A DNA stretch of 41,690 nt from a virus. This document shows positions 692 through 39,057 of the stretch, piece after piece (position 1 is the stretch's first letter; each line of letters starts with the position of its first letter). Under the pieces are notes generated by a model, which made no database searches, was not told where the DNA came from, and worked only from the letters and a program-made list of their open reading frames with translations. The translations under genes and the position numbers were made by a program. The stretch is from positions 1 through 41,690 of IMG/VR virus record IMGVR_UViG_3300002461_000119; one strand, written 5' to 3'.

Positions 692-899
692 TTGGTTGCT
701 CCGTATCTGCTACATCGGATGTAATCATTTCAGCAAGTGCTTTTTGGATTTCATCTGAAAATTTTAAAAAGTTCTGCAAAACCTCGGGGTCGATAGAGAC
801 TGCGTGGTTCTCGTGATGGTTCACTGCAAGATTGATATGGTATCCATCGTAAGACGCATACACACCATCGCCAAGATAACGTGGTTCAGGAAGTGGCAT
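678..899 (-). CDS. hypothetical protein (73 aa)
   Basis: ORF track 678..923. Internal ATG at 899 preferred because AAGGAG lies 8 nt upstream. C-terminal ITSDVA is encoded by a P17 copy. Confidence 0.55.
   Translation of the reverse strand: MPLPEPRYLGDGVYASYDGYHINLAVNHHENHAVSIDPEVLQNFLKFSDEIQKALAEMITSDVADTEQPSATN
710..724. repeat. P17 palindrome copy
   Basis: CTACATCGGATGTAA, 1 mismatch. In CDS 678..899, read ITSDVA. 18 nt before GTG 691. Confidence 0.75.
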
Positions 900-904
900 G
901 ATTG

Positions 905-1069
905 TTACTCCTTTGCTTTCCAAGGACCGGCTTGTTCTTCGTTTTGGTGTAAACCTACAGAGTTACGAAACATTGCTCTTGAACGGCCTTCATCACCTTT
1001 TCCACCACGATGTTTAGTGATAATGTCGTCAATAAAGTCACAGAAAAGTTTGAATTGTTCTTCGGTCAT
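905..1069 (-). CDS. hypothetical small protein (54 aa)
   Basis: Below the ORF-track cutoff. Hand translation MTEEQFKLFCDFIDDIITKHRGGKGDEG... The ATG follows an AAGGAG that overlaps the stop of 1081..2193. Fills a gap in a tightly packed operon. Confidence 0.45.
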   Translation of the reverse strand: MTEEQFKLFCDFIDDIITKHRGGKGDEGRSRAMFRNSVGLHQNEEQAGPWKAKE

Positions 1070-1080
1070 TTGCACGACTG

Positions 1081-2193
1081 TTACTCCTTTCTCAAGAAAG
1101 CTTTGAACTCGCTTGGGGACATTTCTTCACTGATAATCATCTGTTCCCACATTACTTGTTGGTCTTCACGTTGTGCGGAACATAGATCAAGCAATGCACA
1201 AGGACGGAAGTATCGGTTACAAGAGTGCGTAAACATAGGTGCGTCAATTGCTGCCTCGTCACGATACTGTGCCATTACATCCAATGTAAAGAGCGCAGTT
1301 GTCAAGAAGTTACCAACTGCTTCTCTGTCACGATGGATGGGAAAGTGCATATTAGGTGCACTCGTCTTACGCACAGGTAAGGCACTACCTATCAAGATAC
1401 ACTCGTCAGCAACTTCTGGGAAGTATGCTTGGAGTGCACCAATGTATCCACTCTGTTGATGACGAGTACGAAACTGTTCACGCCAACCATCACCCATCGT
1501 GCTAGTCGTTTTGTATTCACCGAGTTTAACACGTTTAGTTTCGGGGTTTTGATAGAGAACGTCACCAAGACCGATGAAACGGATTTGTTCTTTGTAAGGA
1601 TTGTTAAACTCACCTATTACATCGCATGTAAAGATTACGTCCATACTCTTTTCTACACCGATAGTCTTGGTCGGATCGTTCTCATCTTCAATGTAAATTG
1701 GAAACCGAGACAGGTTTGACAAGAAATATCCTGCAAGCTCAAACGCACAATGCTCAAGGTTTGCAAGAGTACGATTGCGATCGTTCTCGTCGTCGTAGAA
1801 GTCACTCGTAGCGATGACATCAACAGCGAGTTTCTCCAAAGCACGAGACGGGTTCTGTTTATACAGTTCAAGATACTTGTCAAACGACAGAGCCTCAAAA
1901 CGATGCTCTCCATAGAGACTGACACCATGAAAGCGTCCATGATCAGGGAGGCCTTGAACCGCCGCAATCTGCATAAGATTGAATGCTGCGAATACATCGT
2001 GCATCACAGAGCCAGCTTCGAGAGCCATTTGACGATAGCCAGTGACAAAGCGTTTGTGTTGCACGTTGTGGATAATGCCCCATTTGGGACACGTAGTCAC
2101 TGCCTCAACGAGAGAGCTAGTAACATATGGCATGGATGTCTTCGTTACATCCGATGGGGTGCGTTGCACTCTCCAGTCGAGTACGCGGGTCAA
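1081..2193 (-). CDS. PD-(D/E)XK (Cas4/RecB-like) exonuclease
   Basis: 370 aa. GLGD-x14-EYK nuclease signature. One N-terminal Cys (TTCPKW) plus C-terminal CNRYFRPCALLDLC resemble a Cas4-type Fe-S cysteine set. Adjacent to the Sak4-like ATPase. Confidence 0.65.
   Translation of the reverse strand: MTRVLDWRVQRTPSDVTKTSMPYVTSSLVEAVTTCPKWGIIHNVQHKRFVTGYRQMALEAGSVMHDVFAAFNLMQIAAVQGLPDHGRFHGVSLYGEHRFEALSFDKYLELYKQNPSRALEKLAVDVIATSDFYDDENDRNRTLANLEHCAFELAGYFLSNLSRFPIYIEDENDPTKTIGVEKSMDVIFTCDVIGEFNNPYKEQIRFIGLGDVLYQNPETKRVKLGEYKTTSTMGDGWREQFRTRHQQSGYIGALQAYFPEVADECILIGSALPVRKTSAPNMHFPIHRDREAVGNFLTTALFTLDVMAQYRDEAAIDAPMFTHSCNRYFRPCALLDLCSAQREDQQVMWEQMIISEEMSPSEFKAFLRKE
1275..1289. repeat. P17 palindrome copy
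   Basis: TTACATCCAATGTAA, perfect. In the exonuclease CDS, read FTLDVM. Confidence 0.9.
1617..1631. repeat. P17 palindrome copy
   Basis: TTACATCGCATGTAA, perfect. In the exonuclease CDS, read FTCDVI. Confidence 0.9.
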
Positions 2194-2540
2194 TTCGGTT
2201 TTCCTTTCGGCTTGGAAGACATTTCGTCGATGAAAGCGTCTACGACTTTAGTCATTGTGTTCGTTGGTTTGATTGCTTCTTTGTTTTTCACAAGGAAAGC
2301 AACTTCTGTCCCAAGAATTGTTGCAGCTGTGTCAAGCATACCAGACATAAGACTGTTTATCTTTTCGGGTTGCTCTTGTACAATGGTATCGGCTACAAAA
2401 GCAAAGAGATAGTTCAAGAAGCACACAAGACAAAGGTCATGCTCTTCTGCTAACTCGATCAGCTTAGTGCCTACAATCATTCCATTGGTTGTGTAGTCAT
2501 CTATATGTTCAGGTTTTAGGTGTTTTAGCGTGGTTGTCAC
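2190..2540 (-). CDS. hypothetical protein (116 aa)
   Basis: ORF track. 4-nt overlaps with both neighbours. No recognisable motif. Confidence 0.6.
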   Translation of the reverse strand: MTTTLKHLKPEHIDDYTTNGMIVGTKLIELAEEHDLCLVCFLNYLFAFVADTIVQEQPEKINSLMSGMLDTAATILGTEVAFLVKNKEAIKPTNTMTKVVDAFIDEMSSKPKGKPN

Positions 2541-2959
2541 AGCATTTTCCTTTCCATTGCTCGTTGTTTATCTTCTTGTTTACCGCGATCGTGGTTACAC
2601 TTTTGACATGCTCCAACTTGACGGATCATTTCTTTGTTGATGTATGCACCACGACGGTTTGTGTTACGACTATCCAAGTGATCAATTGTGCATTCTGTTG
2701 GTGGTATCTTTCCATCTGGGAACATACCAAAGGTCATAGGTTGTTGACACCAGAAGCAGAAACCACGTTGAACCCACCAAAGACGGAAACGTTTAAGCAC
2801 TTTGTCACTTGGGTAGTGTGTGAAGTTCTTGTCACCCAACCGCTCCAACATCAATGCTTGTATCTCGTTGAGAGCGAATGGGTAGTCTTTAGGATTAAAG
2901 ATGTATTTTGTGTTACCATCTTTGATACGGATGTATTCTCGATCACGGCGGTTTGCCAT
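2537..2959 (-). CDS. HNH endonuclease
   Basis: 140 aa. CFWC ... IDHLDSRNTN ... CQKCNHDRG, i.e. CxxC / DH / N / CxxCNH. Confidence 0.8.
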   Translation of the reverse strand: MANRRDREYIRIKDGNTKYIFNPKDYPFALNEIQALMLERLGDKNFTHYPSDKVLKRFRLWWVQRGFCFWCQQPMTFGMFPDGKIPPTECTIDHLDSRNTNRRGAYINKEMIRQVGACQKCNHDRGKQEDKQRAMERKML

Positions 2960-3066: not shown

Positions 3067-3399
3067 TTATTTGTACGGTCCAATGATTACGTCAGGATCA
3101 GTGATTTGACAGTGTTTCTTCTCACGAAGAATTAGACACTGTGCTCGTGCTGCTTGTTCACGAAACTCTTGTGTCTCAAAACCCCAAGCGACGCGAAACC
3201 TGTCGCAAGTGCAGATGGAGTAATACTGTCGAACATAATTAGAATAGACAGTATCACCATCATTCGGAGGAGTGGGCACTTCTGGTGGTTGCGTAGGTGG
3301 AGGAGGAGGAGGAGGAGGAGGAGGAGGCTCACAAGGTTGATCACCACAAGCCAAAGCAGGTGAAGCAATCAACAAGAGCAAGAATAGAAGTTGTTTCAT
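3067..3399 (-). CDS. putative lipoprotein with poly-proline linker
   Basis: ORF track 3067..3414. ATG 3399 preferred (AAAGGAA upstream). Signal peptide MKQLLFLLLLIASPALAC with a lipobox-like ALAC, then 11 consecutive Pro and a Cys-containing C-terminal domain. Confidence 0.7.
   Translation of the reverse strand: MKQLLFLLLLIASPALACGDQPCEPPPPPPPPPPPTQPPEVPTPPNDGDTVYSNYVRQYYSICTCDRFRVAWGFETQEFREQAARAQCLILREKKHCQITDPDVIIGPYK
3301..3327. repeat. (AGG)9 trinucleotide repeat, (CCT)9 on the coding strand
   Basis: Nine perfect AGG units. Encodes the poly-Pro run of the lipoprotein. Confidence 0.9.
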
Positions 3400-3417
3400 T
3401 GCTATTCCTTTCATTTG

Positions 3418-3432
3418 TTACACTGGATGTAA
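3418..3432. repeat. P17 palindrome copy
   Basis: TTACACTGGATGTAA, 1 mismatch. Intergenic, 18 nt before start 3399. Confidence 0.75.
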
Positions 3433-3436
3433 CAGG

Positions 3437-4256: not shown

Positions 4257-4565
4257 TTATAGCAGCCTTTCTTGGTTCTCAATGTTAGCAATGTTGGAGT
4301 TGCTACTTGAGAGGTTTTCGATTGCGTTCTCTAGTTTTTGTAGAGCCTCATTGACCTTGGCTTTTGCGTTCTCAACTCTCGTTACACGGGATGTAAAGAG
4401 GTCAAGTTCTTTACCTTTGAGGGATTGAAGCTTGCCTTCGGTCTTTTCCTTGTAAGATTGAACAAGGACGAGACGGCGAGAGCGCTTGATCTGGATAAAG
4501 GTTTCTGCATCTTGGATTGTTTGCTTGCGTAGGTCAGGTGAAGCATAGATATGTGGTTCGGTCAT
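4257..4565 (-). CDS. hypothetical coiled-coil protein (102 aa)
   Basis: ORF track. K/E/L-rich heptad-like sequence. 4-nt overlap with the upstream ORF. Confidence 0.6.
   Translation of the reverse strand: MTEPHIYASPDLRKQTIQDAETFIQIKRSRRLVLVQSYKEKTEGKLQSLKGKELDLFTSRVTRVENAKAKVNEALQKLENAIENLSSSNSNIANIENQERLL
4382..4396. repeat. P17 palindrome copy
   Basis: TTACACGGGATGTAA, 1 mismatch. In CDS 4257..4565, read FTSRVT. Confidence 0.75.
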
Positions 4566-4813: not shown

Positions 4814-5229
4814 ACTTGGTTTCCTTGATAACTAGTAGACAAAGACACAGGAGGCTTTGACTTCTTGACTGTCTTCTCTGCCATCTTATGAAGCTCTTGA
4901 GCAGAGAGGTCAAACTTCTCTGCCACAGCTTTGATGAATGCGTCCTTGTCGAAGCTTTCACGAGGGTTGTTGACTTTGCCTTTAAGTGTTACACCGGATG
5001 TAACGAGTAGAGTAGTCTCTGGCATAGGTTCATTGAATTTATGTTCAAAGGCTTCTTTGATTTCTTCGGCTGATTTCTCAAAGCGTTTCGCCACACCGAG
5101 AAGAGTATGATGAATAAACAAGTCTTGGACTTGCTTTGCAATGACGTGATTACTTGGCGGAAAGATCAACTCAGTAGCAAGACGAGTGACATCACGACCA
5201 AGAGTTGCAGGTTCGAAGTGGTATTCCAT
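4810..5229 (-). CDS. hypothetical protein (139 aa)
   Basis: ORF track. GAAAGGAA upstream of the ATG. A P17 copy lies 16 nt upstream. Confidence 0.65.
   Translation of the reverse strand: MEYHFEPATLGRDVTRLATELIFPPSNHVIAKQVQDLFIHHTLLGVAKRFEKSAEEIKEAFEHKFNEPMPETTLLVTSGVTLKGKVNNPRESFDKDAFIKAVAEKFDLSAQELHKMAEKTVKKSKPPVSLSTSYQGNQV
4989..5003. repeat. P17 palindrome copy
   Basis: TTACACCGGATGTAA, 1 mismatch. In CDS 4810..5229, read VTSGVT. Confidence 0.75.
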
Positions 5230-5430: not shown

Positions 5431-5670
5431 TTAAGTCTCCTCTGTCACATTGGGTGTATCGACGTGGTGTGTATTCAATACGTTCCAGTAAGCAGAAAAC
5501 TCATGGAAACGTTGTGTGATTGCTTCCACGTCGTCTCGTATATCACCAATGTCTACACCTTTTAGATGGTCAGGATCGGACATCAATTGAATGTTGAGTT
5601 TGCTTGACGCCTGTTTAAGTTGATTGTAAGCACCACGCATCGAACGTCTTACATGAGCTTTATCAATCAT
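5431..5670 (-). CDS. hypothetical protein (79 aa)
   Basis: ORF track. GGAGGAAAA upstream. 4-nt overlap with the upstream ORF. Confidence 0.6.
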   Translation of the reverse strand: MIDKAHVRRSMRGAYNQLKQASSKLNIQLMSDPDHLKGVDIGDIRDDVEAITQRFHEFSAYWNVLNTHHVDTPNVTEET

Positions 5671-5894
5671 GCTTTTCCTCCTTCCATATCTGTTACACTG
5701 GATGTAAAGTCTGGTTTGATTGTCACACGATGCAATTTGCCGTCGGGGTATAAATCAATATACGTCCCAAGCGTGAGTGTAGGATTATAAGCCGTCCACA
5801 AGCGCCAACGCCCGTGCTGCGGATCATAATGCAGCACGGGTGGTTTGCTTTGTGAAAAGACTTGAGCTAATCCTAAGCGGATTTCTTTTGTCAT
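5667..5894 (-). CDS. hypothetical protein (75 aa)
   Basis: ORF track. GAGGAAAA upstream. First gene after the strong sigma70-like promoter at 5978..6006. Confidence 0.6.
   Translation of the reverse strand: MTKEIRLGLAQVFSQSKPPVLHYDPQHGRWRLWTAYNPTLTLGTYIDLYPDGKLHRVTIKPDFTSSVTDMEGGKA
5693..5707. repeat. P17 palindrome copy
   Basis: TTACACTGGATGTAA, 1 mismatch. C-terminus of CDS 5667..5894, read FTSSVT. 22 nt before start 5670. Confidence 0.75.
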
Positions 5895-6244: not shown

Positions 6245-6592
6245 TTAAAATCGCAATTCTAATCCTGCAACAGCACCAACAATATCACCTTCTATCGCTG
6301 GTGCAACAAAAAGTGAAACCTTTTTCTTGATGTCTACGCCCGCACGAATAAATGGTAAAACGTCATGACCAGAGTAACCAGTAACAGCACCAATTTCAAG
6401 CCAGAGAGGACTTTGTTTGTCTTTTAGTTTGATGCCGCCATAAACAGAGACATTGCTTTCACTGTTATAGTAAACTCCAGCGATTAGACCTGTTTCTGTT
6501 ACATCGCATTTAACAGCTGGATGTACCTCGTTATACTCATTGGACAAACCAATGTGGTTAGACAGTGCGATTGCGAATAATATATTACACAT
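6245..6592 (-). CDS. hypothetical protein with outer-membrane beta-barrel-like C-terminus
   Basis: ORF track 6245..6712. ATG 6592 preferred (AAAGGA upstream, P17 16 nt upstream). Alternating hydrophobic pattern and terminal ...GLELRF resemble an OMP beta-signal. Confidence 0.5.
   Translation of the reverse strand: MCNILFAIALSNHIGLSNEYNEVHPAVKCDVTETGLIAGVYYNSESNVSVYGGIKLKDKQSPLWLEIGAVTGYSGHDVLPFIRAGVDIKKKVSLFVAPAIEGDIVGAVAGLELRF
6499..6513. repeat. P17 palindrome copy
   Basis: TTACATCGCATTTAA, 1 mismatch. In CDS 6245..6592, read VKCDVT. Confidence 0.7.
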
Positions 6593-6608
6593 TGGGTTGA
6601 TCCTTTCT

Positions 6609-6623
6609 TTACATCGGATGTAA
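6609..6623. repeat. P17 palindrome copy
   Basis: TTACATCGGATGTAA, perfect. 16 nt before start 6592. Lower edge of the non-coding island. Confidence 0.9.
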
Positions 6624-6668
6624 CGTTGTCTTCGCTTAACGTTATGACTTTTAGTCACAAGGTAAAGA

Positions 6669-6837: not shown

Positions 6838-6854
6838 GAAGTTGTAACAAGCGA
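6838..6854. repeat. 17-nt direct repeat, copy 2
   Basis: GAAGTTGTAACAAGCGA. Overlaps the hairpin AACAAGCG-N10-CGCTTGTT, which abuts a P17 copy. Confidence 0.8.
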
Positions 6855-6869
6855 CCTTGCGACCGCTTG

Positions 6870-6884
6870 TTACATTGGATGTAA
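6870..6884. repeat. P17 palindrome copy
   Basis: TTACATTGGATGTAA, perfect. 3 nt after the stop of 6888..7811. Upper edge of the non-coding island. Confidence 0.9.
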
Positions 6885-25219: not shown

Positions 25220-25240
25220 CACAACTGAAAGGACTGAAAA

Positions 25241-25477
25241 GTGGGAAAATCCCAAGCTACTCAAAATGAAGAAGCTGATAAGCAACAGAACCAAGAGACG
25301 CAAGAAGTTGCTTCGACGGAAGAAGAGGAAGCTTCTGTTGGCGATCCTGCTCCAGCAGTTGTTGACCCTTTTCTCGATAGAAAAGCGCAACGACTAGCCG
25401 CTGTTCAACTTCAAGTAGACGGCCCTAAACGTGAACCCGTTACATCGGATGTAACCGAAGAAGAGAAGGAAGAATAA
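25241..25477 (+). CDS. hypothetical highly acidic protein (78 aa)
   Basis: ORF track (GTG start, AAAGGA 7 nt upstream). E/D/Q-rich. C-terminal VTSDVTEEEKEE contains a P17 copy. Confidence 0.5.
   Translation: MGKSQATQNEEADKQQNQETQEVASTEEEEASVGDPAPAVVDPFLDRKAQRLAAVQLQVDGPKREPVTSDVTEEEKEE
25440..25454. repeat. P17 palindrome copy
   Basis: TTACATCGGATGTAA; the 17-mer 25439..25455 is perfect. C-terminus of the acidic protein, read VTSDVT. 24 nt before ATG 25479. Confidence 0.9.
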
Positions 25478-27432: not shown

Positions 27433-27438
27433 TCGCCA

Positions 27439-27453
27439 TTACATAGGATGTAA
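27439..27453. repeat. P17 palindrome copy
   Basis: TTACATAGGATGTAA, perfect. Intergenic, ends 3 nt before ATG 27457. Confidence 0.9.
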
Positions 27454-27456
27454 CAC

Positions 27457-28766: not shown

Positions 28767-28770
28767 ACTC

Positions 28771-28785
28771 TTACATCCGATGTAA
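28771..28785. repeat. P17 palindrome copy
   Basis: TTACATCCGATGTAA, perfect. Intergenic, 12 nt before ATG 28798. Confidence 0.9.
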
Positions 28786-28797
28786 CAGGAGACGCAA

Positions 28798-32875: not shown

Positions 32876-32906
32876 GGCCCCGGAGAAATCCGGGGCCGTT
32901 TTATTT
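32876..32906. terminator. bidirectional terminator between the convergent arms
   Basis: 9-bp G/C stem GGCCCCGGA/TCCGGGGCC, GAAA loop, GTTTTATTT on the + side, and AGAAA before the stem (T-rich when read on the - strand). Confidence 0.75.
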
Positions 32907-33165
32907 ACAGTCGTTCAGTTAAGATCAAACGTGTCGCTCGCCAAATCATAACAGGTTTCTTTGAGTGATCTTTCTTCACTTCAAAGCATTGTACGAGTTG
33001 ACGAGTGTTCCAGTCTTGTAGAATGTTGCGTATCTCTTCTGCTGGAAAGGCACGAGTGCGACACTTGTCAATCAGGGTAGTATGCATCATACCTTCTTGT
33101 TCTGCATTGACGAGGAGAAGCTTGATTTTATTTTTCAACCTCGATCGGTCTCGTATTTGGTTCAT
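32905..33165 (-). CDS. small winged-helix-like DNA-binding protein (tentative)
   Basis: 86 aa, last gene of the minus arm. Pattern LLLVNAEQEGMMHTTLIDKCR...IRNILQDW...LV resembles a wHTH. Start uncertain (38-nt overlap with the upstream ORF). Confidence 0.4.
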   Translation of the reverse strand: MNQIRDRSRLKNKIKLLLVNAEQEGMMHTTLIDKCRTRAFPAEEIRNILQDWNTRQLVQCFEVKKDHSKKPVMIWRATRLILTERL

Positions 33166-33599: not shown

Positions 33600-33817
33600 A
33601 AGTCCTCCTTCTTACAAAACCAATCTACAACTTGGATCGTCGTTACATCGAATGTAAGGTTTTCAAGTTTCTTGTCGCATTGGTAAGAGAGACAAGATCG
33701 TGGAATTGATTTTGTCTCTCCGTCAAGCATGTAGACAATGACTGACTTCTCTCGGAGACTTTTGATCCCCGAGATTGTCACATCTTTGTAGTTTAAACGG
33801 TCGATGTCGTTGTTCAT
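33596..33817 (-). CDS. hypothetical protein (73 aa)
   Basis: ORF track. 4-nt overlaps on both sides. Confidence 0.55.
   Translation of the reverse strand: MNNDIDRLNYKDVTISGIKSLREKSVIVYMLDGETKSIPRSCLSYQCDKKLENLTFDVTTIQVVDWFCKKEDL
33643..33657. repeat. P17 palindrome copy
   Basis: TTACATCGAATGTAA, perfect. CDS 33596..33817, read LTFDVT. Confidence 0.9.
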
Positions 33818-34591: not shown

Positions 34592-34728
34592 TGCTGTTTC
34601 TCCGCAGGAATTTTTAAGAGTGCCTCGTCTCTTTCATAGGCAATATCTACGATGATCTTAATAAGCTCTGTCTTTTTATAGGTCTTAAGCTTACGACCAC
34701 CATAGACACGATCTTCATCTTTGGTCAT
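34588..34728 (-). CDS. hypothetical small protein (46 aa)
   Basis: Below cutoff. Hand translation MTKDEDRVYGGRKLKTYKKTELIKIIVDIAYERDEALLKIPAEKQQ. ATGA overlaps at both ends. Confidence 0.4.
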   Translation of the reverse strand: MTKDEDRVYGGRKLKTYKKTELIKIIVDIAYERDEALLKIPAEKQQ

Positions 34729-34967
34729 TCCTCTTCCTTTACATCCGATGTAACGGTGATTTCCGTCACAGTGAAGTCACAGTCTTTGAGAGCAAAAGTA
34801 CGGAACGCTTGTTTATCAAGATCGAACGCGTAAAGCATCCACTGATCTTCTGGGTGCCAAGCACTGTGTGTCCAGATGATTTCTTTTGGCTGTACACGTC
34901 GGATAGTTACTTTACCGACATAGTTTGTGTATTTGAATTTCAGTTCGCTGTTATATGCTTCACCCAT
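34725..34967 (-). CDS. hypothetical protein (80 aa)
   Basis: ORF track. C-terminal TVTSDVKEEE contains a P17 copy. Confidence 0.55.
   Translation of the reverse strand: MGEAYNSELKFKYTNYVGKVTIRRVQPKEIIWTHSAWHPEDQWMLYAFDLDKQAFRTFALKDCDFTVTEITVTSDVKEEE
34739..34753. repeat. P17 palindrome copy
   Basis: TTACATCCGATGTAA, perfect. C-terminus of 34725..34967, read VTSDVK. 10 nt before ATG 34728. Confidence 0.9.
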
Positions 34968-34969
34968 GA

Positions 34970-35419
34970 TTAAAACTTTTTACCTCCGTCTTTCATCCGG
35001 TTCTCAAGTTTGTGATCTGCACGACTTGCGTTATATTTAAGCTTTTCAAAGATTGCGTCTCCAATAGGAAGCTTAAATCCTGCGCAGTAATCAAGAATAC
35101 GAATGACACAGTCAGCAAGCTCGACGACTTCATTTTTAAACTCAGGAAGGTGATCATCTTGTCTATCTTTTCGCAATCCTTCAAGGGCTTCGGAAAGCTC
35201 ACTGTGCATAAGAGCAATTGCTTCACCTTTGTTTCGGATAGGCTTACCATCCTCACCACGCTTCCACCATTTCTGATTAAGTTTATGAATGTCATCTGCA
35301 AGGTCTTGCACTTCTTCACAGTGCTGCATGATACATTCACGCAAACCATCAAAGATAGTCTCTGTTACATTGGATGTAACGTCAAGCTGCAAGTCTTGCT
35401 TTTCTGTATGATCCGGCAT
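34970..35419 (-). CDS. MazG-like nucleoside triphosphate pyrophosphohydrolase
   Basis: 149 aa. All-alpha NTP-PPase pattern ALMHSELSEALEGLRK ... EVVELADCVIRILDY ... KLKYNASRADH. Confidence 0.65.
   Translation of the reverse strand: MPDHTEKQDLQLDVTSNVTETIFDGLRECIMQHCEEVQDLADDIHKLNQKWWKRGEDGKPIRNKGEAIALMHSELSEALEGLRKDRQDDHLPEFKNEVVELADCVIRILDYCAGFKLPIGDAIFEKLKYNASRADHKLENRMKDGGKKF
35365..35379. repeat. P17 palindrome copy
   Basis: TTACATTGGATGTAA; the 17-mer 35364..35380 is perfect. MazG-like N-terminus, read VTSNVT. Confidence 0.9.
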
Positions 35420-35603
35420 GTTTCAACTCCTTCGGATTGATTGTGGGAAGTTCCATAGTCCCGGTTACGACATCAACATTAAAGCCACAACGACAGTACC
35501 ATACGAATATGAAGTGATCATCTTTACTTACTGTCATTTGTAGAGGTCTATCACAACATGGACATTTTGGCTTATTGATGTGACTTCGTGGAACGAGTGT
35601 CAT
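35382..35603 (-). CDS. zinc-ribbon protein (73 aa)
   Basis: ORF track. CPCC ... CRC cysteine pairs. 4-nt overlap with the polymerase gene end. Confidence 0.5.
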   Translation of the reverse strand: MTLVPRSHINKPKCPCCDRPLQMTVSKDDHFIFVWYCRCGFNVDVVTGTMELPTINPKELKHAGSYRKARLAA

Positions 35604-38026
35604 ATCTTTGCAGCCTCCAACTTGATCGAAACCATGTTCTCCATGTTGCGAATTTCTTTCTCAGGGTCGCTGATTTTGAGGTCAGCGGGGATGATCATGG
35701 GATTTGTCTTTCCCGTTACAATGGATGTAACCATGATAGGTTTTTCGGCATAGGCTTTTGCAATGGACAAAGCTTTATGTGCGAACTCTGGAGTTGCTAC
35801 ACCCCAGAGAGCGTCGTGAACGTTAGCAACAACTCGCCCATAACGCATGTCCCATCGTTCGTCTTCTTGGGTTTGGTACCAAACTTGAGACACCTTATCG
35901 CCGATTGTGGATTGAGGACGAAAAGCAACGACTGATTTGAGAGCTTCTTCGTCATCAAGGCGATTAAGGAATTGGAGCCTGCGTCCAAGACTGTTAAAAA
36001 GTTGCCTTTTCTTTCTCGCTTCACTTTCTAGTTTCTCCCACCAAACTTTCAGTTCTGGGTTTACTCTGTGATAGGCATAATAGTTCTTGGCAGCGTTACC
36101 AAGAGAAAGACCTGTTGTTTGGGCGAGACGTGCAATCTGCATCCGGTAATTAAGCCCGTGACGACAACGTTTTGCGATATACCGAATAGTGAACTCACCA
36201 TTGATTTCGTCCTTCTTGGGAACTTCATCGTAAGGAACGTTGAACATGGTACTTGCCAAGCTTCTATGTGCGTCGAACTCACCATCCATACGCGCTTTCT
36301 CGAAGTCTTCGACCCACTTTTCGATCCACGCATCCCATCCGACATAACGAGCCTCCGCTTGTGCTAGGTCAAAGTACCAGAAGACGCAGTTGTCATCTGC
36401 GAGGTACATAGCTCTAGCCCGTCGCGGTTGATTTTGCGCATTTCCTCCAGAACCCCAGAGCGTCTGTCCAGAAGAAAGGCGTCCCGGAGCAGAAGTTGTG
36501 CCGAATTGTCTATATTCTGCACGGAAACGGCCGTCTGGGTCAATCTTTGTTTCGACATAAGTGCTAAAGAACTTATGCTCACGAGCGTAGTTGTTGAGAG
36601 CAATGATGACATTCTTGACACTTTCACTCACCCTTGGGTCTTTGAGCCAGTTTTCACGGACCGGTTCCGCCGTGGAACGAGAGGGACTTGAGCAACCGAG
36701 CTTCTCGTAGAAGAGTTGTTTGAGTTGCTTAGGGCTATTTGGATTGACAACCAACTCGTGGTCACCAGTAGCAACGCTAATCGCTCTCTGGAATTTATCG
36801 TATAGGTCTGTGACATCTTTAGAAAGTTCCTTATGTAGACGAAGTTTCTCGTTCATGTCAACCTTGATACCGTCAACAGTTGACTGTGTTAAATGAGGAT
36901 GAAGTCTCATTACATGGGATGTAAAGAATTCGAGAAGGTTCTGCTGTTGCAACTCGACACGAAGTTTGTTTGCAATCGCAAGAGTGATCGCAGCATCTTT
37001 ACAGTTGTATCGCCAAAAACCTTCGATGTCTCCACCTTCTTTGAACACGTCTTTTTCATCCTTGTAGTAAGGATGATCAGTGTATTGTGAAGTTAAGAAG
37101 CCAAGGTTATGAGGAAGGCTAGGATACAAAGTATGATGGGCAAGGAGAGTATCAAAACTAACTCTAAATCGCGCATGATCTTTGAACCCCATGAAGTAAC
37201 TGTCAAAGTTGCCATTTTGTGCGATGACTTCAACGGATTTGTCATCCGTGACTTCAAGGAACTTGCGAAGGATTAGAAACTCTTCTTCTGGTGTATAGAC
37301 ATTGGTGCTTTTGTCGCGGAAAGCGATACACATCGCCTCGTCTTCTTTATACGCAACGCCGATGCAAGCTGTCTCCATACCGATGACTTCGATGTCAACG
37401 GAGATTGTTTTATGTAAACGACATTGTTCAAGATAATTGAGTGCCTCGTCACAGGTCGGGTAAAGGATCGAGTGTATAACCGGGACATGAAAGTCTCCAT
37501 CAAGAACACGTTTTGCTTTGTCCATGTCCATGAGAAAGACAATCTCAAGGGATGGATCACGAAGGATCATAGCGGGATTGTTAGATACCAGTACAGGAAT
37601 GTCACCGTAACTATAGACAGAACCACGAAGAGTTGATACGCCCTCAGTACCCAAGAGCGCTGCGATAGCCGTGTTGCCAAGAGCAATAATAAGCTTGCAA
37701 TTATGAAGGTGACTAAGCTCATATTGCAGTGCCTCCTTCCATAGTTCAAACTCAACTTGATTGACACTTGTATTCGGTGTAACGCGACGCTTGATGACAT
37801 TCGTCACGTAGCAATGAGTACGAAGAATGCCAAAGCGACGAAGGGCATTCCACAAATGTTTACCAGCAGCACCCATAAACGGTTTGTTGTAAGCAACTTC
37901 TTGCTCACCTGGATACTCGGATACGATAACGATTTCTGCATCATCATCGCCATCCATAGCGCATTGAATATCTAGTCCGTACGATGCTGTGTGTTCAGCG
38001 AAACGAATGAATTGCGATGTTGACAT
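35600..38026 (-). CDS. family-A DNA polymerase with N-terminal family-4-UDG-like domain and 3'-5' exonuclease
   Basis: ORF track 35600..38110. ATG 38026 preferred (AAGGAG 7 nt upstream). UDG-like SEYPGEQE...PFMGAAGKHL...NPAMILR. Exo motif ISVDIEV. Pol motifs FDLAQAEARY (A), RYIAKRCRHGLNY (B), VANVHDAL (C). Confidence 0.85.
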   Translation of the reverse strand: MSTSQFIRFAEHTASYGLDIQCAMDGDDDAEIVIVSEYPGEQEVAYNKPFMGAAGKHLWNALRRFGILRTHCYVTNVIKRRVTPNTSVNQVEFELWKEALQYELSHLHNCKLIIALGNTAIAALLGTEGVSTLRGSVYSYGDIPVLVSNNPAMILRDPSLEIVFLMDMDKAKRVLDGDFHVPVIHSILYPTCDEALNYLEQCRLHKTISVDIEVIGMETACIGVAYKEDEAMCIAFRDKSTNVYTPEEEFLILRKFLEVTDDKSVEVIAQNGNFDSYFMGFKDHARFRVSFDTLLAHHTLYPSLPHNLGFLTSQYTDHPYYKDEKDVFKEGGDIEGFWRYNCKDAAITLAIANKLRVELQQQNLLEFFTSHVMRLHPHLTQSTVDGIKVDMNEKLRLHKELSKDVTDLYDKFQRAISVATGDHELVVNPNSPKQLKQLFYEKLGCSSPSRSTAEPVRENWLKDPRVSESVKNVIIALNNYAREHKFFSTYVETKIDPDGRFRAEYRQFGTTSAPGRLSSGQTLWGSGGNAQNQPRRARAMYLADDNCVFWYFDLAQAEARYVGWDAWIEKWVEDFEKARMDGEFDAHRSLASTMFNVPYDEVPKKDEINGEFTIRYIAKRCRHGLNYRMQIARLAQTTGLSLGNAAKNYYAYHRVNPELKVWWEKLESEARKKRQLFNSLGRRLQFLNRLDDEEALKSVVAFRPQSTIGDKVSQVWYQTQEDERWDMRYGRVVANVHDALWGVATPEFAHKALSIAKAYAEKPIMVTSIVTGKTNPMIIPADLKISDPEKEIRNMENMVSIKLEAAKI
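35716..35730. repeat. P17 palindrome copy
   Basis: TTACAATGGATGTAA, 1 mismatch. Polymerase C-terminal tail, read VTSIVT. Confidence 0.75.
36910..36924. repeat. P17 palindrome copy
   Basis: TTACATGGGATGTAA, perfect. Polymerase CDS, read FTSHVM. Confidence 0.9.
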
Positions 38027-38198
38027 GTTTTGGCTCCTTAAGTTTTGTCTTGAAGAAGGCGATACGATGAACAGGTATCTTGAGTTTTGTTGATGTAGCA
38101 ACTTCACCAACGAATGCAGAATAACGAAGCACTTCGTTGATGTCGTAACAACCGTAGCTGTCTACTTTCGGCGGGTCTGGAATTGCCAATTGTGGCAT
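37995..38198 (-). CDS. hypothetical protein (67 aa)
   Basis: ORF track. AAAGGAG 8 nt upstream. Overlaps both neighbours out of frame. Confidence 0.45.
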   Translation of the reverse strand: MPQLAIPDPPKVDSYGCYDINEVLRYSAFVGEVATSTKLKIPVHRIAFFKTKLKEPKHVNIAIHSFR

Positions 38199-38476
38199 CT
38201 TGCATACTCCTTTCGAGTGTCATCTTTATGACGTTTGATTACATCGGATGTAGTGTGTCGAGAAAGTCCAGTAAGCTCCATTAACTGTTTCGGTGTTGCA
38301 AAATATGGAGCAGAAAGGACAATTCTACAAAACTCGTACATGATCTTTGAAGAATGATCCTTTGGAATGTCATAACGAGCGATGTCCTCTTGGAAGTAAA
38401 TGGTGGCAGCAGCACGGAATAACCGTGCTGCCTCCGCATTGTTGAGGTTAAAGGAGATTGGGCTTTTTGTCAACAA
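38162..38476 (-). CDS. helix-turn-helix DNA-binding protein
   Basis: 104 aa (TTG start after GGAGAG). Classic HTH TPKQLMELTGLSRHTTSDVIKR. The recognition-helix codons are themselves a P17 copy. Confidence 0.6.
   Translation of the reverse strand: MLTKSPISFNLNNAEAARLFRAAATIYFQEDIARYDIPKDHSSKIMYEFCRIVLSAPYFATPKQLMELTGLSRHTTSDVIKRHKDDTRKEYARCHNWQFQTRRK
38239..38253. repeat. P17 palindrome copy
   Basis: TTACATCGGATGTAG, 1 mismatch. Codons of the HTH recognition helix, read TTSDVI. Confidence 0.75.
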
Positions 38477-38726
38477 TTTGCTCTCCTTTGAAAGCAGCTT
38501 TTAGTTTCGCCACTTCGTCGTCGATGTATTTGCCCATCTTTTCTACTTGTTCAGGTGTGTATTCGTAAGAAGGGCCTGCGCAATTGCGAAGGACCTGCAA
38601 CGATTTAAGCACATTCTCAAGACGAGAAGACGCGATGCGAGAGAATTTTTGTGCAGGACTTTCGCTCGTGGTAGCCAAGTCTTCTGCCGCTTCAAGCTCT
38701 TCTTTAGTGTGTCCATCATTAGCCAT
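38448..38726 (-). CDS. hypothetical protein (92 aa)
   Basis: ORF track 38448..38852. ATG 38726 preferred (GAGGAGAAC upstream, 10 nt after the upstream stop). Confidence 0.55.
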   Translation of the reverse strand: MANDGHTKEELEAAEDLATTSESPAQKFSRIASSRLENVLKSLQVLRNCAGPSYEYTPEQVEKMGKYIDDEVAKLKAAFKGEQIVDKKPNLL

Positions 38727-38736
38727 TTTGTTCTCC

Positions 38737-39057
38737 TCATTTGATGGGCCATATTTGGTCAGGCCACAGTTTCTCTTTACTGTCCAAGCCGGTGTCATCC
38801 AGTTGACCCGCCTCAATCGCGATTTTCTTAGCTTCAACATTATGCACCACACGTCCGTGGTTTGTGATAAATTGGATGTCTTCTTCGAGGAACTTTCTAA
38901 GTCGTGGTGTTTCCTTTAACAGTTGGTTGTAGTAATCCATTACATGCGATGTAACGGGGATTGGGATAGTGACTTTACAATGCAAGTCTTCTCGAAAAGC
39001 ATAACCTTCGAGCACGAAACATGCACATGAAAGCCGTTCTTTATGAATAGGTTTCAC
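38737..39057 (-). CDS. hypothetical protein (106 aa; start uncertain)
   Basis: ORF track (GTG start overlapping the helicase end by 17 nt). The alternative ATG at 38940 lies inside a P17 copy but has no SD. Confidence 0.45.
   Translation of the reverse strand: MKPIHKERLSCACFVLEGYAFREDLHCKVTIPIPVTSHVMDYYNQLLKETPRLRKFLEEDIQFITNHGRVVHNVEAKKIAIEAGQLDDTGLDSKEKLWPDQIWPIK
38940..38954. repeat. P17 palindrome copy
   Basis: TTACATGCGATGTAA, perfect. In ORF 38737..39057, read VTSHVM. Confidence 0.9.

Follow-up and report, generated by a model that had tools for sequence, protein, structure and literature searches.

A frame-biased palindrome repeated throughout an uncultured phage genome: candidate operator sites for a dimeric DNA-binding protein

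The window analysed here, a 41,690-nucleotide stretch of viral DNA, covers one complete phage genome (41,596 bp) plus a 94-bp assembly overlap. About 55 copies of one palindrome are found in this 41.6-kb genome of an uncultured phage, and they share the dyad consensus Y-GTTACAT-YCR-ATGTAAC-R, a 17-bp palindrome core with a fixed 3-bp centre. The exact pattern GTTACAT-NNN-ATGTAAC (GTTACATNNNATGTAAC) has 12 matches where 0 are expected, rising to 49 at up to two mismatches and to 59 at up to three, against 2.19 expected and a shuffle maximum of 5. The spacer is strictly 3 nt: TTACAT-N3-ATGTAA occurs exactly 35 times, the same arms at other spacings from 0 to 11 give no exact match, and isolated half-sites show no excess over chance. 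Half-site centres lie 10 bp apart, with invariant arms and a free centre (the less conserved positions are 1, 8-10 and 17). The copies are listed below with strand and mismatches (mm; those with 3 mm are degenerate); peptides are frame-1 readings, and relatives carry labels such as L021.

709-725 (-), 2 mm, ITSDVA: in the C-terminal portion of small ORF 678-923, with GTG start 691 of the AAA_24 gene 17 nt downstream; kept in L021
1274-1290 (-), 2 mm, FTLDVM: exonuclease residue 302; lost in L021, shifted in L022
1616-1632 (-), 2 mm, FTCDVI: exonuclease residue 188; 4-codon indel relative to L022/L025
2982-2998 (-), 1 mm: intergenic, 22 nt before ATG 2959 (HNH-like gene)
3417-3433 (-), 1 mm: occupies the 22-nt gap from stop 3437 to start 3414
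4381-4397 (-), 2 mm, FTSRVT: intragenic
4988-5004 (-), 1 mm, VTSGVT: intragenic; kept in L021
5245-5261 (-), 2 mm: intergenic, with a ribosome-binding site next and ATG 5229 15 nt downstream
5444-5460 (-), 3 mm, DTPNVT: next start just downstream; L021 copy one codon away
5692-5708 (-), 2 mm, FTSSVT: intragenic, ATG 5670 21 nt downstream; identical in L021
6226-6242 (-), 2 mm: intergenic, PagP-like stop 2 nt before, ATG 6209 16 nt after
6498-6514 (-), 1 mm, VKCDVT: inside the PagP-like gene
6608-6624 (-), 1 mm: intergenic, 15 nt upstream of true ATG 6592
6869-6885 (-), 1 mm: stop 6888 ends 2 nt before; right arm TGTAAC also pairs with downstream GTTACA, the base of terminator-like hairpin 6874-6843; same layout at the homologous place in L021
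7872-7888 (-), 2 mm, FTSNVN: ATG 7811 60 nt downstream
8092-8108 (-), 2 mm: intergenic, with the -35 hexamer (TTGACA) of a putative early promoter 6 nt downstream
8437-8453 (-), 3 mm: intergenic, past predicted promoter 8516-8488, with ATG 8421 15 nt downstream
8562-8578 (-), exact: 4 nt past stop 8583, within a longer 12-bp dyad
9043-9059 (-), 1 mm: leader of minus-strand gene 8583-8933
9499-9515 (no strand assigned), 2 mm: the -35 of predicted minus-strand promoter 9489-9462 lies 9 nt downstream
9645-9661 (no strand assigned), exact: early region, transcription direction ambiguous
10260-10276 (no strand assigned), exact: overlaps the -10 (TACATT) of predicted minus-strand promoter 10296-10269; ATG 10235 24 nt downstream; surrounding DNA conserved in L017/L018
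10497-10513 (no strand assigned), 2 mm: non-coding region
10864-10880 (no strand assigned), 1 mm: non-coding region, downstream of strong terminator 10750-10775
11177-11193 (+), 2 mm: first of a tandem pair in the leader from promoter 11022-11050 to TerS
11210-11226 (+), 1 mm: second of the leader pair, TerS ATG 11247 20 nt downstream
11858-11874 (+), 1 mm: intergenic, TerS stop 3 nt before, TerL ATG 10 nt after
13755-13771 (+), 3 mm, ATLDVV: portal residue 134
13830-13846 (+), 1 mm, VTSHLT: portal residue 159
15503-15519 (+), 2 mm, VTPDVK: scaffold residue 58
16349-16365 (+), 1 mm, VTSDVK: scaffold residue 340, capsid-gene ATG 60 nt downstream; L019/L020 have their own TTAAA-type palindrome in this alignment column
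17432-17448 (+), 3 mm, VTRRVI: residue 14; copy in L015-L018, F-V-T-R without palindrome in L019/L020
18485-18501 (+), exact: 4 nt past stop 18480, GC-rich hairpin directly 3'
19245-19261 (+), 2 mm, ATQDVT: residue 16
19923-19939 (+), 2 mm, VTSIVI: residue 242, hydrophobic strand-like segment; copy in L018, substitution in L016/L020
21065-21081 (+), exact, VTSYVT: fibre residue 73; L018 VTTYVT with its own motif, L020 VVDYVT without palindrome
22503-22519 (+), 1 mm, VTFNVK: intragenic
24324-24340 (+), 1 mm, ITSDVT: C-terminal end of a probable small ORF that closes with ATGA at 24350, the ATG of which lies 9 nt downstream
25204-25220 (+), 1 mm: intergenic, start 25241 20 nt downstream
25439-25455 (+), exact, VTSDVT: within the acidic tail at the C-terminus, ATG 25479 23 nt downstream
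27438-27454 (+), 1 mm: intergenic, separated by 2 nt from ATG 27457 downstream; the AGG of its centre acts as the ribosome-binding site
28770-28786 (+), 1 mm: intergenic, stop 3 nt before, ATG 28798 11 nt after
29017-29033 (+), exact, VTSNVT: residue 74 of a 1349-aa protein; relatives without copy
31363-31379 (+), exact, VTSYVT: residue 856 of the 1349-aa protein; kept in L021, VTSLVT with Ser AGC in L022
32853-32869 (+), exact: 5 nt past stop 32847 at a convergent junction, GC-rich terminator hairpin directly 3'
33642-33658 (-), 1 mm, LTFDVT: next start 62 nt downstream; kept in L021
34738-34754 (-), 1 mm, VTSDVK: acidic tail of a stand-alone WYL-domain protein; centre flipped CGG to CCG in L021, synonymous
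35364-35380 (-), exact, VTSNVT: MazG-like gene, residue 14; kept in L021
35715-35731 (-), 1 mm, VTSIVT: DNA polymerase, C-terminus ~42 aa away; L022 VTSTVT with Ser AGC, L025 VTSIMT without palindrome
36909-36925 (-), 2 mm, FTSHVM: conserved polymerase segment FFTSHVMRLHPH; Ser codon TCC in this phage and L021, AGC in L022
38238-38254 (-), 3 mm, TTSDVI: falls in the putative recognition helix of a weak HTH protein (38162-38476); L021 keeps it
38939-38955 (-), 1 mm, VTSHVM: VTTLVM with the lineage's own version of the motif in L022; lost from L021
40447-40463 (-), 3 mm, VTTSVN: kept in L021
40600-40616 (-), exact: intergenic, GC-rich hairpin directly 3'; same layout in L022
41100-41116 (-), exact: intergenic, SSB-like gene ATG 41053 46 nt downstream

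The original prediction dealt with the intragenic copies. These are real, but the intergenic half was overlooked: on the corrected gene map, the copies with up to two mismatches divide into 24 intragenic and 25 intergenic, an intergenic share (25/49) far above the 11% of sequence that is non-coding (p=6e-12). The palindrome sequence is the same in both classes, and intergenic copies usually fall after a stop codon and before the next ribosome-binding site. The description of intragenic copies as lying in tails or linkers holds for part of the set: 8/24 fall in the 100 nt preceding the next start, a zone that makes up 10.7% (p=0.003), whereas others sit in conserved cores such as the polymerase segment noted above.

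All 27 hexapeptides originally listed were reproduced, every one reading x-T-x-x-V-x, 12 in plus-strand and 15 in minus-strand genes, and among copies with up to two mismatches 24/24 are in frame 1. The only two apparent frame-3 copies became intergenic once the gene map was corrected: the ORF at 9043 is a spurious plus-strand frame where the conserved genes are on the minus strand, and 6608 precedes the true start of the PagP-like gene. The 11210 copy (VTSNV.), absent from the original list, belongs to the TerS leader and not to a gene. Other-frame matches are limited to 23005 and 40051, at three mismatches each and at chance level. Nulls based on codon usage and on codon shuffling give a frame 1 to frame 3 ratio of only ~2-2.6 : 1; with a frame-3 expectation of ~0.28, the probability is ~4e-4 for 24:0 and ~1e-4 for 27:0 (hand arithmetic). 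A frame bias of 24-27:0 beyond codon usage is therefore real. It is a strong bias and not an absolute lock, because the relatives hold 3 frame-3 copies against ~114 in frame 1.

The explanation for this bias is in part demonstrated and in part inferred. Read in frame 1, the conserved core TACA..TGTA gives Thr..Val; frame 2 contains a stop (TAA or TAG), and frame 3 gives Tyr..Cys and would impose Tyr-Ile/Met-x-Cys-Asn. In frame 1 the less conserved positions also fall on residues that can vary conservatively (V/I/L/F first, S/L/F followed by D/N/H/Y centrally, T/K/I last). With a stop in frame 2 and Tyr/Cys in frame 3, a DNA signal would therefore be met almost only in frame 1. In the lineage with TTAAA..TTTAA arms, frames 2 and 3 both contain stops. 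By contrast, the 17-bp repeat of Corndog is stop-free in every frame and its copies are spread over all three (11/6/3).

Selection at the nucleotide level maintains the copies, both in genes and between them. Third-codon-position identity with L021, which keeps 12-13/17 sites, is 69% in copies versus 48% elsewhere (p=3e-5), despite an amino-acid identity that is lower inside copies than outside. At three conserved sites this phage encodes a Ser by TCC where L022 encodes the same Ser by AGC, in exact agreement with each lineage's motif, and at one scaffold-gene site each lineage has its own palindrome while the peptide varies (VTSDVK / VKRVLN / IKPVLK). The codon switch and the third-position conservation thus indicate that DNA, not peptide, is selected. 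Together with the intergenic identity and the scaffold site, they bear out the earlier proposal of a nucleic-acid-level signal of which only the V-T-S-D-V-T-type reading is tolerated.

The competing proposal, spread as an in-frame 15-18-nt insertion, fails since the six codons align ungapped with homologue residues in the portal, fibre, polymerase, 1349-aa protein and others; only exonuclease FTCDVI coincides with an indel (4-codon). In the portal, VTSHLT aligns with LYTHLT / IQAHLT / ALAHLT of relatives and is therefore a substitution. Unlike Rickettsia palindromic elements, which insert in frame, the copies replace existing residues, and the alignments show that they arise by point substitution and codon choice, without insertion, where the protein already resembles x-T-x-x-V-x. 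It had also been argued that homologues with the peptide but lacking the palindrome would mark the peptide as the selected object. A few such sites do exist (PolA VTSIMT in L025; F-V-T-R in L019/L020), but they do not show the peptide to be the object of selection; they show instead that copies are built on pre-adapted peptides.

Eight related phage lineages each have their own palindrome version, including TTACAA..TTGTAA, CTACAG..CTGTAG and TTAAA..TTTAA. Counted enrichments across the lineages are 24 vs 0.03, 10 vs 0.09 and 6 vs 0.04 expected. Between lineages the arms change on both sides together. The motif is a family-wide system with lineage-specific arms.

Most likely the palindromes serve a dimeric DNA-binding protein as its binding sites. 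Against this, the enrichment of intragenic copies just before the next start (8/24) and the position of most intergenic copies just ahead of a ribosome-binding site would also suit an mRNA-level role, and the 6869 right arm can join an alternative terminator stem. Against hairpins, the arms do not change while the centre varies, and the L022 palindrome extends into the centre (8+1+8), where it would be unusable. Sense-strand mismatches comprise 44 G·U, 61 A·C and 133 others, with no G·U-compatible excess; predicted folding of TTAAA-type copies yields only 0 to -2.2 kcal/mol; and the centre doubles as a ribosome-binding site where a copy abuts a start codon. Because the arms are invariant, the centre free, the spacer strict, G·U pairs not in excess and the hairpins of one lineage unstable, we favour duplex-DNA sites for a dimeric protein over an RNA hairpin.

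Other observations also count against this dimer-operator reading. The sense-strand central base is C in ~17/20 intergenic copies of clear transcription direction (hand count), a bias that a symmetric dimer does not explain. The bias is absent from the intergenic copies of L022 (5:4). As its source, avoidance of sequences resembling GGA-type ribosome-binding sites has only partial support: AGGA and GGAT are depleted relative to their complements, whereas GGA and TGGA show no such depletion. In addition, ~55 sites, many of them deep in genes, far exceed what a promoter regulator needs.

In relation to promoters, copies precede -35 hexamers by 6-10 nt, one overlaps a -10, and two are in the late leader. 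The explanation that best accommodates the whole, which we would accept with moderate confidence, is that these DNA-selected, frame-locked dyads are candidate dimer operator sites controlling transcription. They would act as operator-like duplex sites for a homodimeric sequence-specific protein, probably phage-encoded and co-evolving with them, which would bind at gene boundaries, beside or inside early promoters, in the late-operon leader and just upstream of terminators. The likely effect would be genome-wide control of host RNA polymerase transcription, whether by roadblock, by insulation or by control of promoters and read-through.

Searches of Pfam and PHROG for the binding protein gave no DNA-binding domain above threshold. 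Two candidates can be put forward, for which the structural leads are limited to non-significant winged-helix-like matches.

32905-33165 (-): 86-aa protein, a purely inferred candidate reader; present in 7/7 relatives covering the region; predicted topology H-H-H-beta-beta (winged-helix-like), with conserved basic wing HSKKPVxIWRAT; Foldseek matches of the model (pLDDT 55) not significant
6888-7811 (-): 307-aa conserved early protein, a second and weak candidate; the model (pLDDT 81), with long helices and two helix/beta-hairpin modules, has no significant structural match

Such genome-wide palindrome sets are already known from other phages. The action would resemble that of stoperators, from which the present site differs in being symmetric. 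The nearest known parallel is the 17-bp repeat of Cluster O mycobacteriophages, for whose 7-3-7 architecture 'dimeric DNA binding proteins' were inferred (PMC4351075).

Throughout the window, the palindrome GTTACATNNNATGTAAC is found 12 times exactly, 49 times with up to two mismatches and 59 times with up to three, where 2.2 occurrences are expected. Copies, named here by their start coordinate, are present in both gene blocks with a mean spacing of ~0.75 kb. The geometry is strict: TTACAT-N3-ATGTAA has 35 exact occurrences, other spacings have none, and half-sites on their own are as frequent as expected by chance. The logo and the spacing scan resolve nearly invariant 7-bp inverted arms around a variable 3-bp centre. 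The dyad extends beyond 17 bp, with Y at -1, R at +1, Y at position 8 and R at position 10, the central base being its sole asymmetric position. Judged from sequence comparison, the copies are most likely genome-wide operator-like sites for a dimeric DNA-binding protein.

The window is a JGI metagenome contig, the first 94 bp of which are repeated exactly at its end (1-94 = 41597-41690), so that it represents a complete phage genome of 41,596 bp, either circular or terminally redundant. Its genes are arranged as follows:

~32,900 through the junction to ~10,300, minus strand: replication and early block, with genes for a family-A DNA polymerase, a Dda-like helicase, MazG, a dNMP kinase, an exonuclease, a Sak4-like AAA_24 protein and an SSB-like protein
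spanning the junction, start GTG 691, minus strand: the Sak4-like AAA_24 gene
2537-2959, minus strand: HNH/endonuclease-VII-like protein of 140 aa (phrog_33554, 2e-5; Pfam Endonuclease_7, E=0.07)
35600-38026, minus strand: the family-A DNA polymerase (PolA), with an embedded family-4 uracil-DNA-glycosylase (UDG-4) domain, PF03167
11,247 to 32,847, plus strand: structural block, with TerS, TerL, portal, scaffold, capsid, fibres and a 1349-aa protein

The true start of the polymerase probably lies ~28 codons downstream of TTG 38110. The UDG-4 domain is also embedded in the many homologues of this protein (1045 at E<=1e-30, many from contigs of 40-45 kb), which place the phage in a very large uncultured family. 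Searches of cultured phages by megablast and tblastn returned no close relative (PolA at most 28% identical, no match for the capsid protein). Since an IMG/VR scan with the exact motif gave single-copy chance matches only, relatives were sought through proteins. Locus scans with PolA or with the portal as single proteins gave no result, and syntenic uncultured relatives were recovered via the capsid protein (L015-L020) and via the polymerase (L021-L025 and L028-L031). Among the PHROG and Pfam matches of the ORFs searched, which cover the small ORFs in part, there is no RNA polymerase, integrase or repressor; integrase and repressor are likewise absent from the gene tables of the relatives, and no partition genes were detected in the window.

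Twenty-five of the 49 copies with up to two mismatches lie in non-coding DNA, which constitutes 11% of the genome (p=6e-12), a preference that went unnoticed in the original prediction. The typical intergenic copy occupies the space from a stop codon to the following ribosome-binding site, 0-24 nt ahead of the start codon, and the distance from copy to ATG ranges from 0 to >100 nt. Of the intragenic copies, 8 of 24 fall within the 100 nt preceding the next start, an enrichment over the 10.7% expected (p=0.003). Sigma-70-like promoters are concentrated in the divergent region at ~8,000-11,050, where copies 8092 and 9499 lie 6-10 nt upstream of the -35 elements of predicted early promoters and copy 10260 overlaps a -10; the late-operon leader holds two tandem copies, 11177 and 11210. 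GC-rich terminator-like hairpins directly follow copies 6869, 18485, 32853 and 40600. At the first of these (6843-6885, minus strand), the right arm TGTAAC can pair with a GTTACA 20 nt downstream, and this pairing forms the base of the 14-bp terminator-like stem and excludes the motif's own hairpin, an antiterminator/terminator-like layout seen at that site only. Among the window's intergenic copies of clear direction, ~17 of 20 have C as the central base of the sense strand; among those of the relative L022 the split is 5:4. Avoidance of GGA-like ribosome-binding sequences could cause this bias, but such avoidance has mixed compositional support. Copies 0-2 nt from a start codon place their purine-rich centre where the ribosome-binding site should be, and the centre is used as such at 27438-27459 (AGG) and, as GGA, GGAG and GGG, in start-abutting copies of L028 (18630), L029 (18810) and L031 (9028 and 19333).

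The original prediction held that all 27 intragenic copies are locked in one reading frame, and this is confirmed: every hexapeptide was reproduced, 12 in plus-strand and 15 in minus-strand genes, and each copy is read GTT ACA TNN NAT GTA ACN, giving x-T-x-x-V-x (frame 1; VTSDVT, for example). Two candidate exceptions in frame 3 were rejected. Copy 9043 falls in the plus-strand ORF 8544-9086, for which no homologue exists; on the minus strand, by contrast, ORFs 8583-8933 and 9189-9482 (true ATG 9428) are conserved in L017, so that the copy sits in a leader. Copy 6608 lies only within a GTG-extended version of the PagP-like ORF, the real start of which is ATG 6592, with a ribosome-binding site and a hydrophobic N-terminus, and therefore the copy is 15 nt upstream of the gene. 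Both plus-strand ORFs of this region, 8074-8472 and 8544-9086, are spurious, the conserved genes lying on the opposite strand. The genes concerned are:

6245-6592, minus strand: PagP-like (lipid A acylation) accessory gene, absent from the relatives
8209-8421, minus strand: conserved gene opposite a spurious ORF
8583-8933, minus strand: conserved gene opposite a spurious ORF
9189-9428, minus strand: conserved gene opposite a spurious ORF

After correction of the gene map, 24 intragenic copies remain at up to two mismatches, and every one is in frame 1. The ratio of frame 1 to frame 3 expected from codon usage and from codon shuffles within genes is only 2-2.6 : 1, and the observed 24-27 : 0 (probability ~1e-4 to 4e-4) means that the frame lock is real and not a trivial effect of codon frequency. 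For all lineages, frame 1 of the conserved core gives ACA..GTA (Thr..Val), frame 2 holds TAA or TAG, and frame 3 gives TAC..TGT (Tyr..Cys). The variable positions of the motif fall where frame 1 permits V/I/L/F, S/L/F, D/N/H/Y and T/K/I, and in the lineage with TTAAA arms there are stops in both other frames. Across six genomes there are ~114 copies in frame 1, 3 in frame 3 and 6 in frame 2, the stop being destroyed in the latter, a count that is descriptive because some sites are homologous between genomes and mismatch thresholds differ. Two of the frame-3 copies are bona fide, namely L021 5043-5059 (RYNACN in the exonuclease, lineage-specific and of the A7/T11 type within a T7/A11 genome) and L028 7660-7676 (YKGCK in the polymerase); the third is in L029. 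Frame 3 is avoided ~15-fold beyond the codon-frequency prediction, which would reflect what a Tyr-Ile-x-Cys-Asn block costs the protein. The lock is a strong bias set by protein tolerance, a by-product of writing a DNA code into proteins, and no separate mechanism is indicated. As a control, the 7-3-7 repeat of mycobacteriophage Corndog, unlike that of the window, is found in all three frames (11/6/3), because it presents no stop or Cys codon in any of them.

The suggestion of the original prediction that a nucleic-acid signal is under selection proves right, on the strength of the intergenic copies, synonymous conservation and serine codon switches. For the synonymous test, sites were ascertained in the window only and compared with L021, the version restricted to shared sites being circular by ascertainment. 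Between 12 and 13 of 17 intragenic sites are retained in L021, and third-codon-position identity is 68.6% in motif codons versus 47.7% elsewhere (p=3e-5), with amino-acid identity lower in motif codons (64% versus 73%). At three conserved sites (FFTSHVM and VTS[IT]VT in PolA and VDQGVTS[YL]VT in the 1349-aa protein) the same serine is encoded by TCC in the window and L021 and by AGC in L022, in each case exactly the codon demanded by the motif of that lineage. Similarly, close to where the scaffold gene ends, 60-75 nt ahead of the capsid gene, one and the same alignment column holds a different palindrome for each of the window, L019 and L020, and here the peptide changes from VTSDVK to IKPVLK and VKRVLN. 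With its switches between serine codon families (TCC to AGC) and its conserved synonymous sites, the motif offers a clean textbook example of constraints that overlap: genes carry the DNA signal only in the frame that spells an innocuous peptide. DNA uptake sequences of Haemophilus and Neisseria likewise are DNA-level signals that accumulate in genes preferentially in the frames and protein positions of least cost; they are bacterial, are not dyads by themselves and are gained through biased uptake and recombination.

Each lineage of relatives has its own over-represented dyad, and at least six arm sequences occur within the family (counted enrichments include 24 versus 0.03, 10 versus 0.09 and 6 versus 0.04 expected):

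Window and L021 (PolA identity 85%): GTTACAT-N3-ATGTAAC
L022/L023 (PolA identity 69%): GTTACAAG-C-CTTGTAAC, a perfect 8+1+8 palindrome
L017/L018: GTTACAA-N3-TTGTAAC
L028 (PolA identity 63%): [AT]TTACAA-N3-TTGTAA[AT]
L019/L020/L025 (PolA identity 59%): xTTAAA-N5-TTTAAx
L029 (PolA identity 58%): GATACAA-N3-TTGTA[AT]C
L030 (PolA identity 54%): a different 16-bp palindrome, 5 copies only
L031 (PolA identity 49%): GCTACAG-N3-CTGTAGC, 26 copies in 22 kb

The core TACA..TGTA is retained in most lineages, and the two arms change jointly, from T..A to C..G at positions 2/16, from T..A to A..T or G..C at 7/11 and from C..G to A..T at 5/13. L030 is without the 17-bp dyad and has instead the even palindrome T[GA]ACAACG·CGTTGT[CT]A at 225, 915, 11214, 20409 and 21460, which shares the ACAA..TTGT core at a different spacing. 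A concerted, symmetric change of both arms across whole genomes points to a twofold-symmetric, sequence-specific reader protein, or to base pairing.

It is on balance probable that the sites are bound as duplex DNA by a protein that the phage itself would encode. The half-site centres are one helical turn apart with strict spacing, which counts for duplex recognition by a dimer, and the symmetry of the L022 palindrome runs through positions 8 and 10, which are unable to pair in a 1-nt loop. An alternative to be taken seriously, although we regard it as unlikely, is that the palindrome acts as an RNA hairpin (7-bp stem, 3-nt loop) at cistron boundaries in polycistronic transcripts, where it would direct processing, affect stability, or work as a translational operator or antiterminator. 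A phage RNA-binding protein, for instance the stand-alone WYL-domain protein encoded at 34725-34967, might bind it. Such a role would suit the copies that lie in 5' leaders or that follow a stop codon and precede the next ribosome-binding site, the enrichment of intragenic copies just upstream of the next start, the bias of the window's central base to sense-strand C and the position of at least four copies immediately 5' of terminator hairpins, as well as the alternative terminator-stem pairing possible at 6869 and a predicted hairpin energy of -5.4 kcal/mol in the window. However, an invariant stem with a free loop is the reverse of usual RNA-protein recognition, and the symmetry in L022 reaches into what would be the loop. 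Mismatches on the sense strand show no G·U preference (G·U 44, A·C 61, other 133), and the TTAAA-type units, at 0 to -2.2 kcal/mol, would not fold. Start-abutting copies in which the loop is the ribosome-binding site would need to be melted for translation, and conservation extends to copies far inside the polymerase, portal and 1349-aa genes. Moreover, the WYL gene is missing in several lineages, and there is no Rfam match.

Three related candidates were rejected. A sense-RNA hairpin, prompted by the CCR centre and apparent U·G variants, shows no wobble excess and is unfolded in the TTAAA lineage. REP-like RNA elements do not match, since pairing is not kept by G·U or compensatory change and the fold is not stable in all lineages. 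Hairpin promoters like those of N4 (7-bp stem, 3-nt loop, purine-centred template loop) are a misfit to ~55 copies, many of them before terminators. Neither the 1349-aa protein nor the other large proteins have a PHROGs, Pfam or PDB sequence match to a phage single-subunit RNA polymerase, of which a very remote homologue is possible.

The duplex-DNA evidence applies equally to a host DNA-binding protein, be it a regulator, a nucleoid protein or a defence factor, that is recruited or titrated by phage-borne sites, the arm differences between lineages then reflecting different hosts. Dyad architecture is typical of bacterial operators, and searches yielded no phage-encoded reader. We nevertheless consider a host protein improbable: relatives as close as 69-85% polymerase identity already differ in their arms, which a fast co-evolving phage pair fits better than usually conserved host regulators do, and we know of no operator consensus that matches the palindrome.

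Quite improbable, too, is a signal in single-stranded or cruciform DNA for replication or recombination, for example in lagging-strand priming or as the target of the HNH/endonuclease-VII-like nuclease, which would feed a recombination module of the Sak4-like protein, exonuclease and SSB. Both the module and the nuclease gene are present, the mean spacing is ~0.75 kb, and the orientation of transcription is also that of bidirectional replication from the divergent region. Against this, spacing tracks gene density with no regular interval, priming has no need of gene boundaries, and stems of 6-7 A/T-rich bp are too weak to extrude (those of the TTAAA lineage would not fold). The HNH gene is restricted to the window and L021, and wobble or structure-only conservation is absent.

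The second explanation in the original prediction, a mobile mini-element spreading by in-frame insertion of 15-18 nt, is largely refuted and has a very low probability. Rickettsia palindromic elements, with which it was compared, are ~100-150 bp long, lie in frame inside genes and add residues by insertion, whereas the six codons of the window motif replace existing residues and align without a gap at all but one of the alignable sites. The portal has VTSHLT where homologues have LYTHLT, IQAHLT or ALAHLT; FFVTSIVIV in a 550-aa protein corresponds to FFYNAIVIV, and VVTSYVT in the fibre to VVVDYVT. In all, the places with gap-free substitution are portal, fibre, g17393, g19200, two PolA sites and the 1349-aa protein; the protein encoded after the capsid gene keeps F-V-T-R whether or not the palindrome is present. 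Point mutation and codon choice thus produced the copies, on peptides with a prior resemblance to x-T-x-x-V-x, as they occur in relatives without the palindrome. A 4-codon indel at exonuclease FTCDVI is the one site in keeping with insertion, and no extended conserved flank, target duplication or transposase accompanies the copies. Accessory genes flanked by copies would also suit such an element: the PagP-like gene is bracketed by copies 6608 and 6226, and the gene at 3067-3414 by copies 3417 and 2982. Such pairs may mark cassette boundaries. Selection for the peptide x-T-S-D-V-T itself, as a protein tag or cleavage site with the palindrome as by-product, would suit a few palindrome-free homologues that keep the peptide (VTSIMT in PolA of L025, F-V-T-R in L019/L020) and is refuted by the non-coding half of the copies, the conserved synonymous positions and a peptide that shifts wholesale from one lineage motif to another (to ATEPVV in L031 and VKxxLN in L020) over a persisting dyad.

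The proteins that came up in the search for a reader, together with the WYL-domain protein named above for the RNA hairpin, are:

32905-33165: candidate reader of 86 aa, the sole small protein in all seven relatives covering the region
6888-7811: weak second candidate reader, an early protein of 307 aa
38162-38476, minus strand: weak helix-turn-helix (HTH) protein of 104 aa, with sub-threshold matches at residues 52-87 to MarR_2, HTH_23 and phrog_534 'DNA binding protein'
34725-34967, minus strand: stand-alone WYL-domain protein of 80 aa (Pfam E=4e-5, above the curated cut-off; phrog_3715, 2e-19)

The 86-aa protein has a predicted helix-helix-helix-hairpin topology and a conserved basic wing, HSKKPVxIWRAT. 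Its single-sequence model has a pLDDT of 55, and a Foldseek comparison with known structures gave winged-helix matches (ORC2, Fur/Zur, kleisin), none of them significant; PDB profile searches with this and three conserved small proteins found no match. For the 307-aa protein, an AlphaFold model with a pLDDT of 81 likewise had no significant structural match in Foldseek. Pfam and PHROGs searches of ~45 ORFs for a reader gave only the sub-threshold HTH matches of the 38162-38476 protein, the putative recognition helix of which, SRHTTSDVIKRH, is itself encoded by motif copy 38238; its orthologues precede the polymerase gene in L021, L022 and L025 and are absent from several lineages. The acidic tail of the WYL-domain protein also contains a motif copy, and its gene is found in L021, L029 and L031 but not in all lineages. 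A third homologue search for the reader was weakened by an alignment that mixed two families. A tentative and rather unlikely extension is that the palindrome and a small universal phage protein, for which the 86-aa protein is the candidate, form a fast-evolving 'self-marking' code, in which each lineage would have an orthogonal pair of site and reader that coats or punctuates its own DNA roughly once per gene. A virulent phage would thereby gain lineage-specific transcription control, or the means to exclude related phages or be immune to them, and selection on a DNA-protein code would visibly shape the proteome (x-T-x-x-V-x).

Dispersed dyad repeats have already been described in a few cultured phages, in Cluster O (2015) and Cluster EG (2020). 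Cluster O mycobacteriophages such as Corndog have >30 copies of the 17-bp repeat TGTTCGG-NNN-CCGAACA genome-wide, ~40% in short intergenic gaps and about one third inside genes; a few are near predicted SigA promoters and most are not, the repeat has no orientation, there is no integrase, and the authors infer a dimeric DNA-binding protein (PMC4351075). Our recount gave 34 copies, 14 of them intergenic. Both repeats have 7-bp inverted arms around a 3-bp variable centre, 17 bp in total, and occur in tens of copies across the whole genome as a mixture of intergenic and intragenic sites (25 and 24 in the window), with no integrase found. The sequences are unrelated, Corndog being a 70-kb siphovirus of an actinobacterial host, and the repeats occur at ~1 per 2 kb there and at 1 per 0.75 kb in the window. 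Arm variation between lineages could not show among the five genomes of Cluster O, which are nearly identical. The window motif fits the Cluster O kind on every testable feature, with orientation less clear (symmetric arms, but a central base biased to sense-strand C in the window and split 5:4 in L022) and binding by a dimeric protein a deduction in both.

Other systems are less alike. Microbacterium phages of Cluster EG have an 18-bp inverted repeat, GATCAACC-NN-GGTTGATC, that is start-proximal and conserved amid diverging surrounding DNA, with no repressor or integrase (PMC7302621). The intergenic copies of the window, 0-24 nt upstream of starts, are similarly placed, whereas the EG repeat has 8-10 copies at one genome end, all intergenic, and an even 2-bp spacer. 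Stoperators of Cluster A mycobacteriophages (L5, Bxb1) are repressor-binding sites scattered in number across the genome in one predominant orientation relative to transcription, and their lineage consensus co-varies with the repressor (PMC6550527, PMC9283540). A lineage-specific consensus is also a feature of the window family, but the stoperator is an asymmetric 13-bp site bound by a monomeric repressor for prophage silencing in temperate phages, whereas the window site is a dyad with no repressor or integrase found and half of its copies inside genes. The 22-bp repeats of T1-like phages (T1, Stevie), which are virulent and infect Gram-negative hosts, number 16-20 copies, predominantly intergenic and oriented with transcription (PMC4319613); in contrast to the window motif they are asymmetric and not reported inside genes. 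Start-associated sequences of Cluster K mycobacteriophages are asymmetric, include the ribosome-binding site and keep a fixed distance from the start codon, unlike a dyad that lies 0 to >100 nt from the ATG and is intragenic in half of its copies. What the window and its relatives add is a Gram-negative-type uncultured phage family, a higher density, lineage-specific arm changes and a frame lock with codon-level footprints. The arm variation makes the reader protein computationally testable, via covariation between residues and half-site bases, and likewise the strength of the constraint that the DNA code imposes on protein sequence. The motif is also of use in annotation, as a marker of gene boundaries and a means of recognising spurious ORFs and misassigned start codons.

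Several minor observations concern the divergent region and the accessory genes. Between 10300 and 11190 there is ~0.9 kb without a convincing gene, in which Rfam and tRNA scans gave no match and which could be a small RNA or an origin. The features in and beside it are:

9729-10235, minus strand: three translationally coupled small ORFs of 70, 52 and 44 aa
~10560-10650: GC-rich segment
10660-10700: A/T-rich promoter-like stretch
10750-10775: strong terminator, 11-bp stem and T run
11022-11050: late promoter TTGACA-17-TAGTAT, its surroundings conserved in L017/L018

The three small ORFs, which were missed by a 60-aa cut-off, carry the early block to ~10,300, and the last of them (44 aa) is a predicted membrane peptide. 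The 8583-8933 product has a signal peptide ending in AQA, which suggests a Gram-negative host. Among the relatives, genes with the Acb2/Tad1-hairpin domain (anti-CBASS/Thoeris sponges) are found at L028 3632-3865 and L031 6623-6871, and L030 has ribonucleotide reductase, ThyX and dCMP deaminase genes at 12503-16718; these are variable accessory modules within the same backbone.
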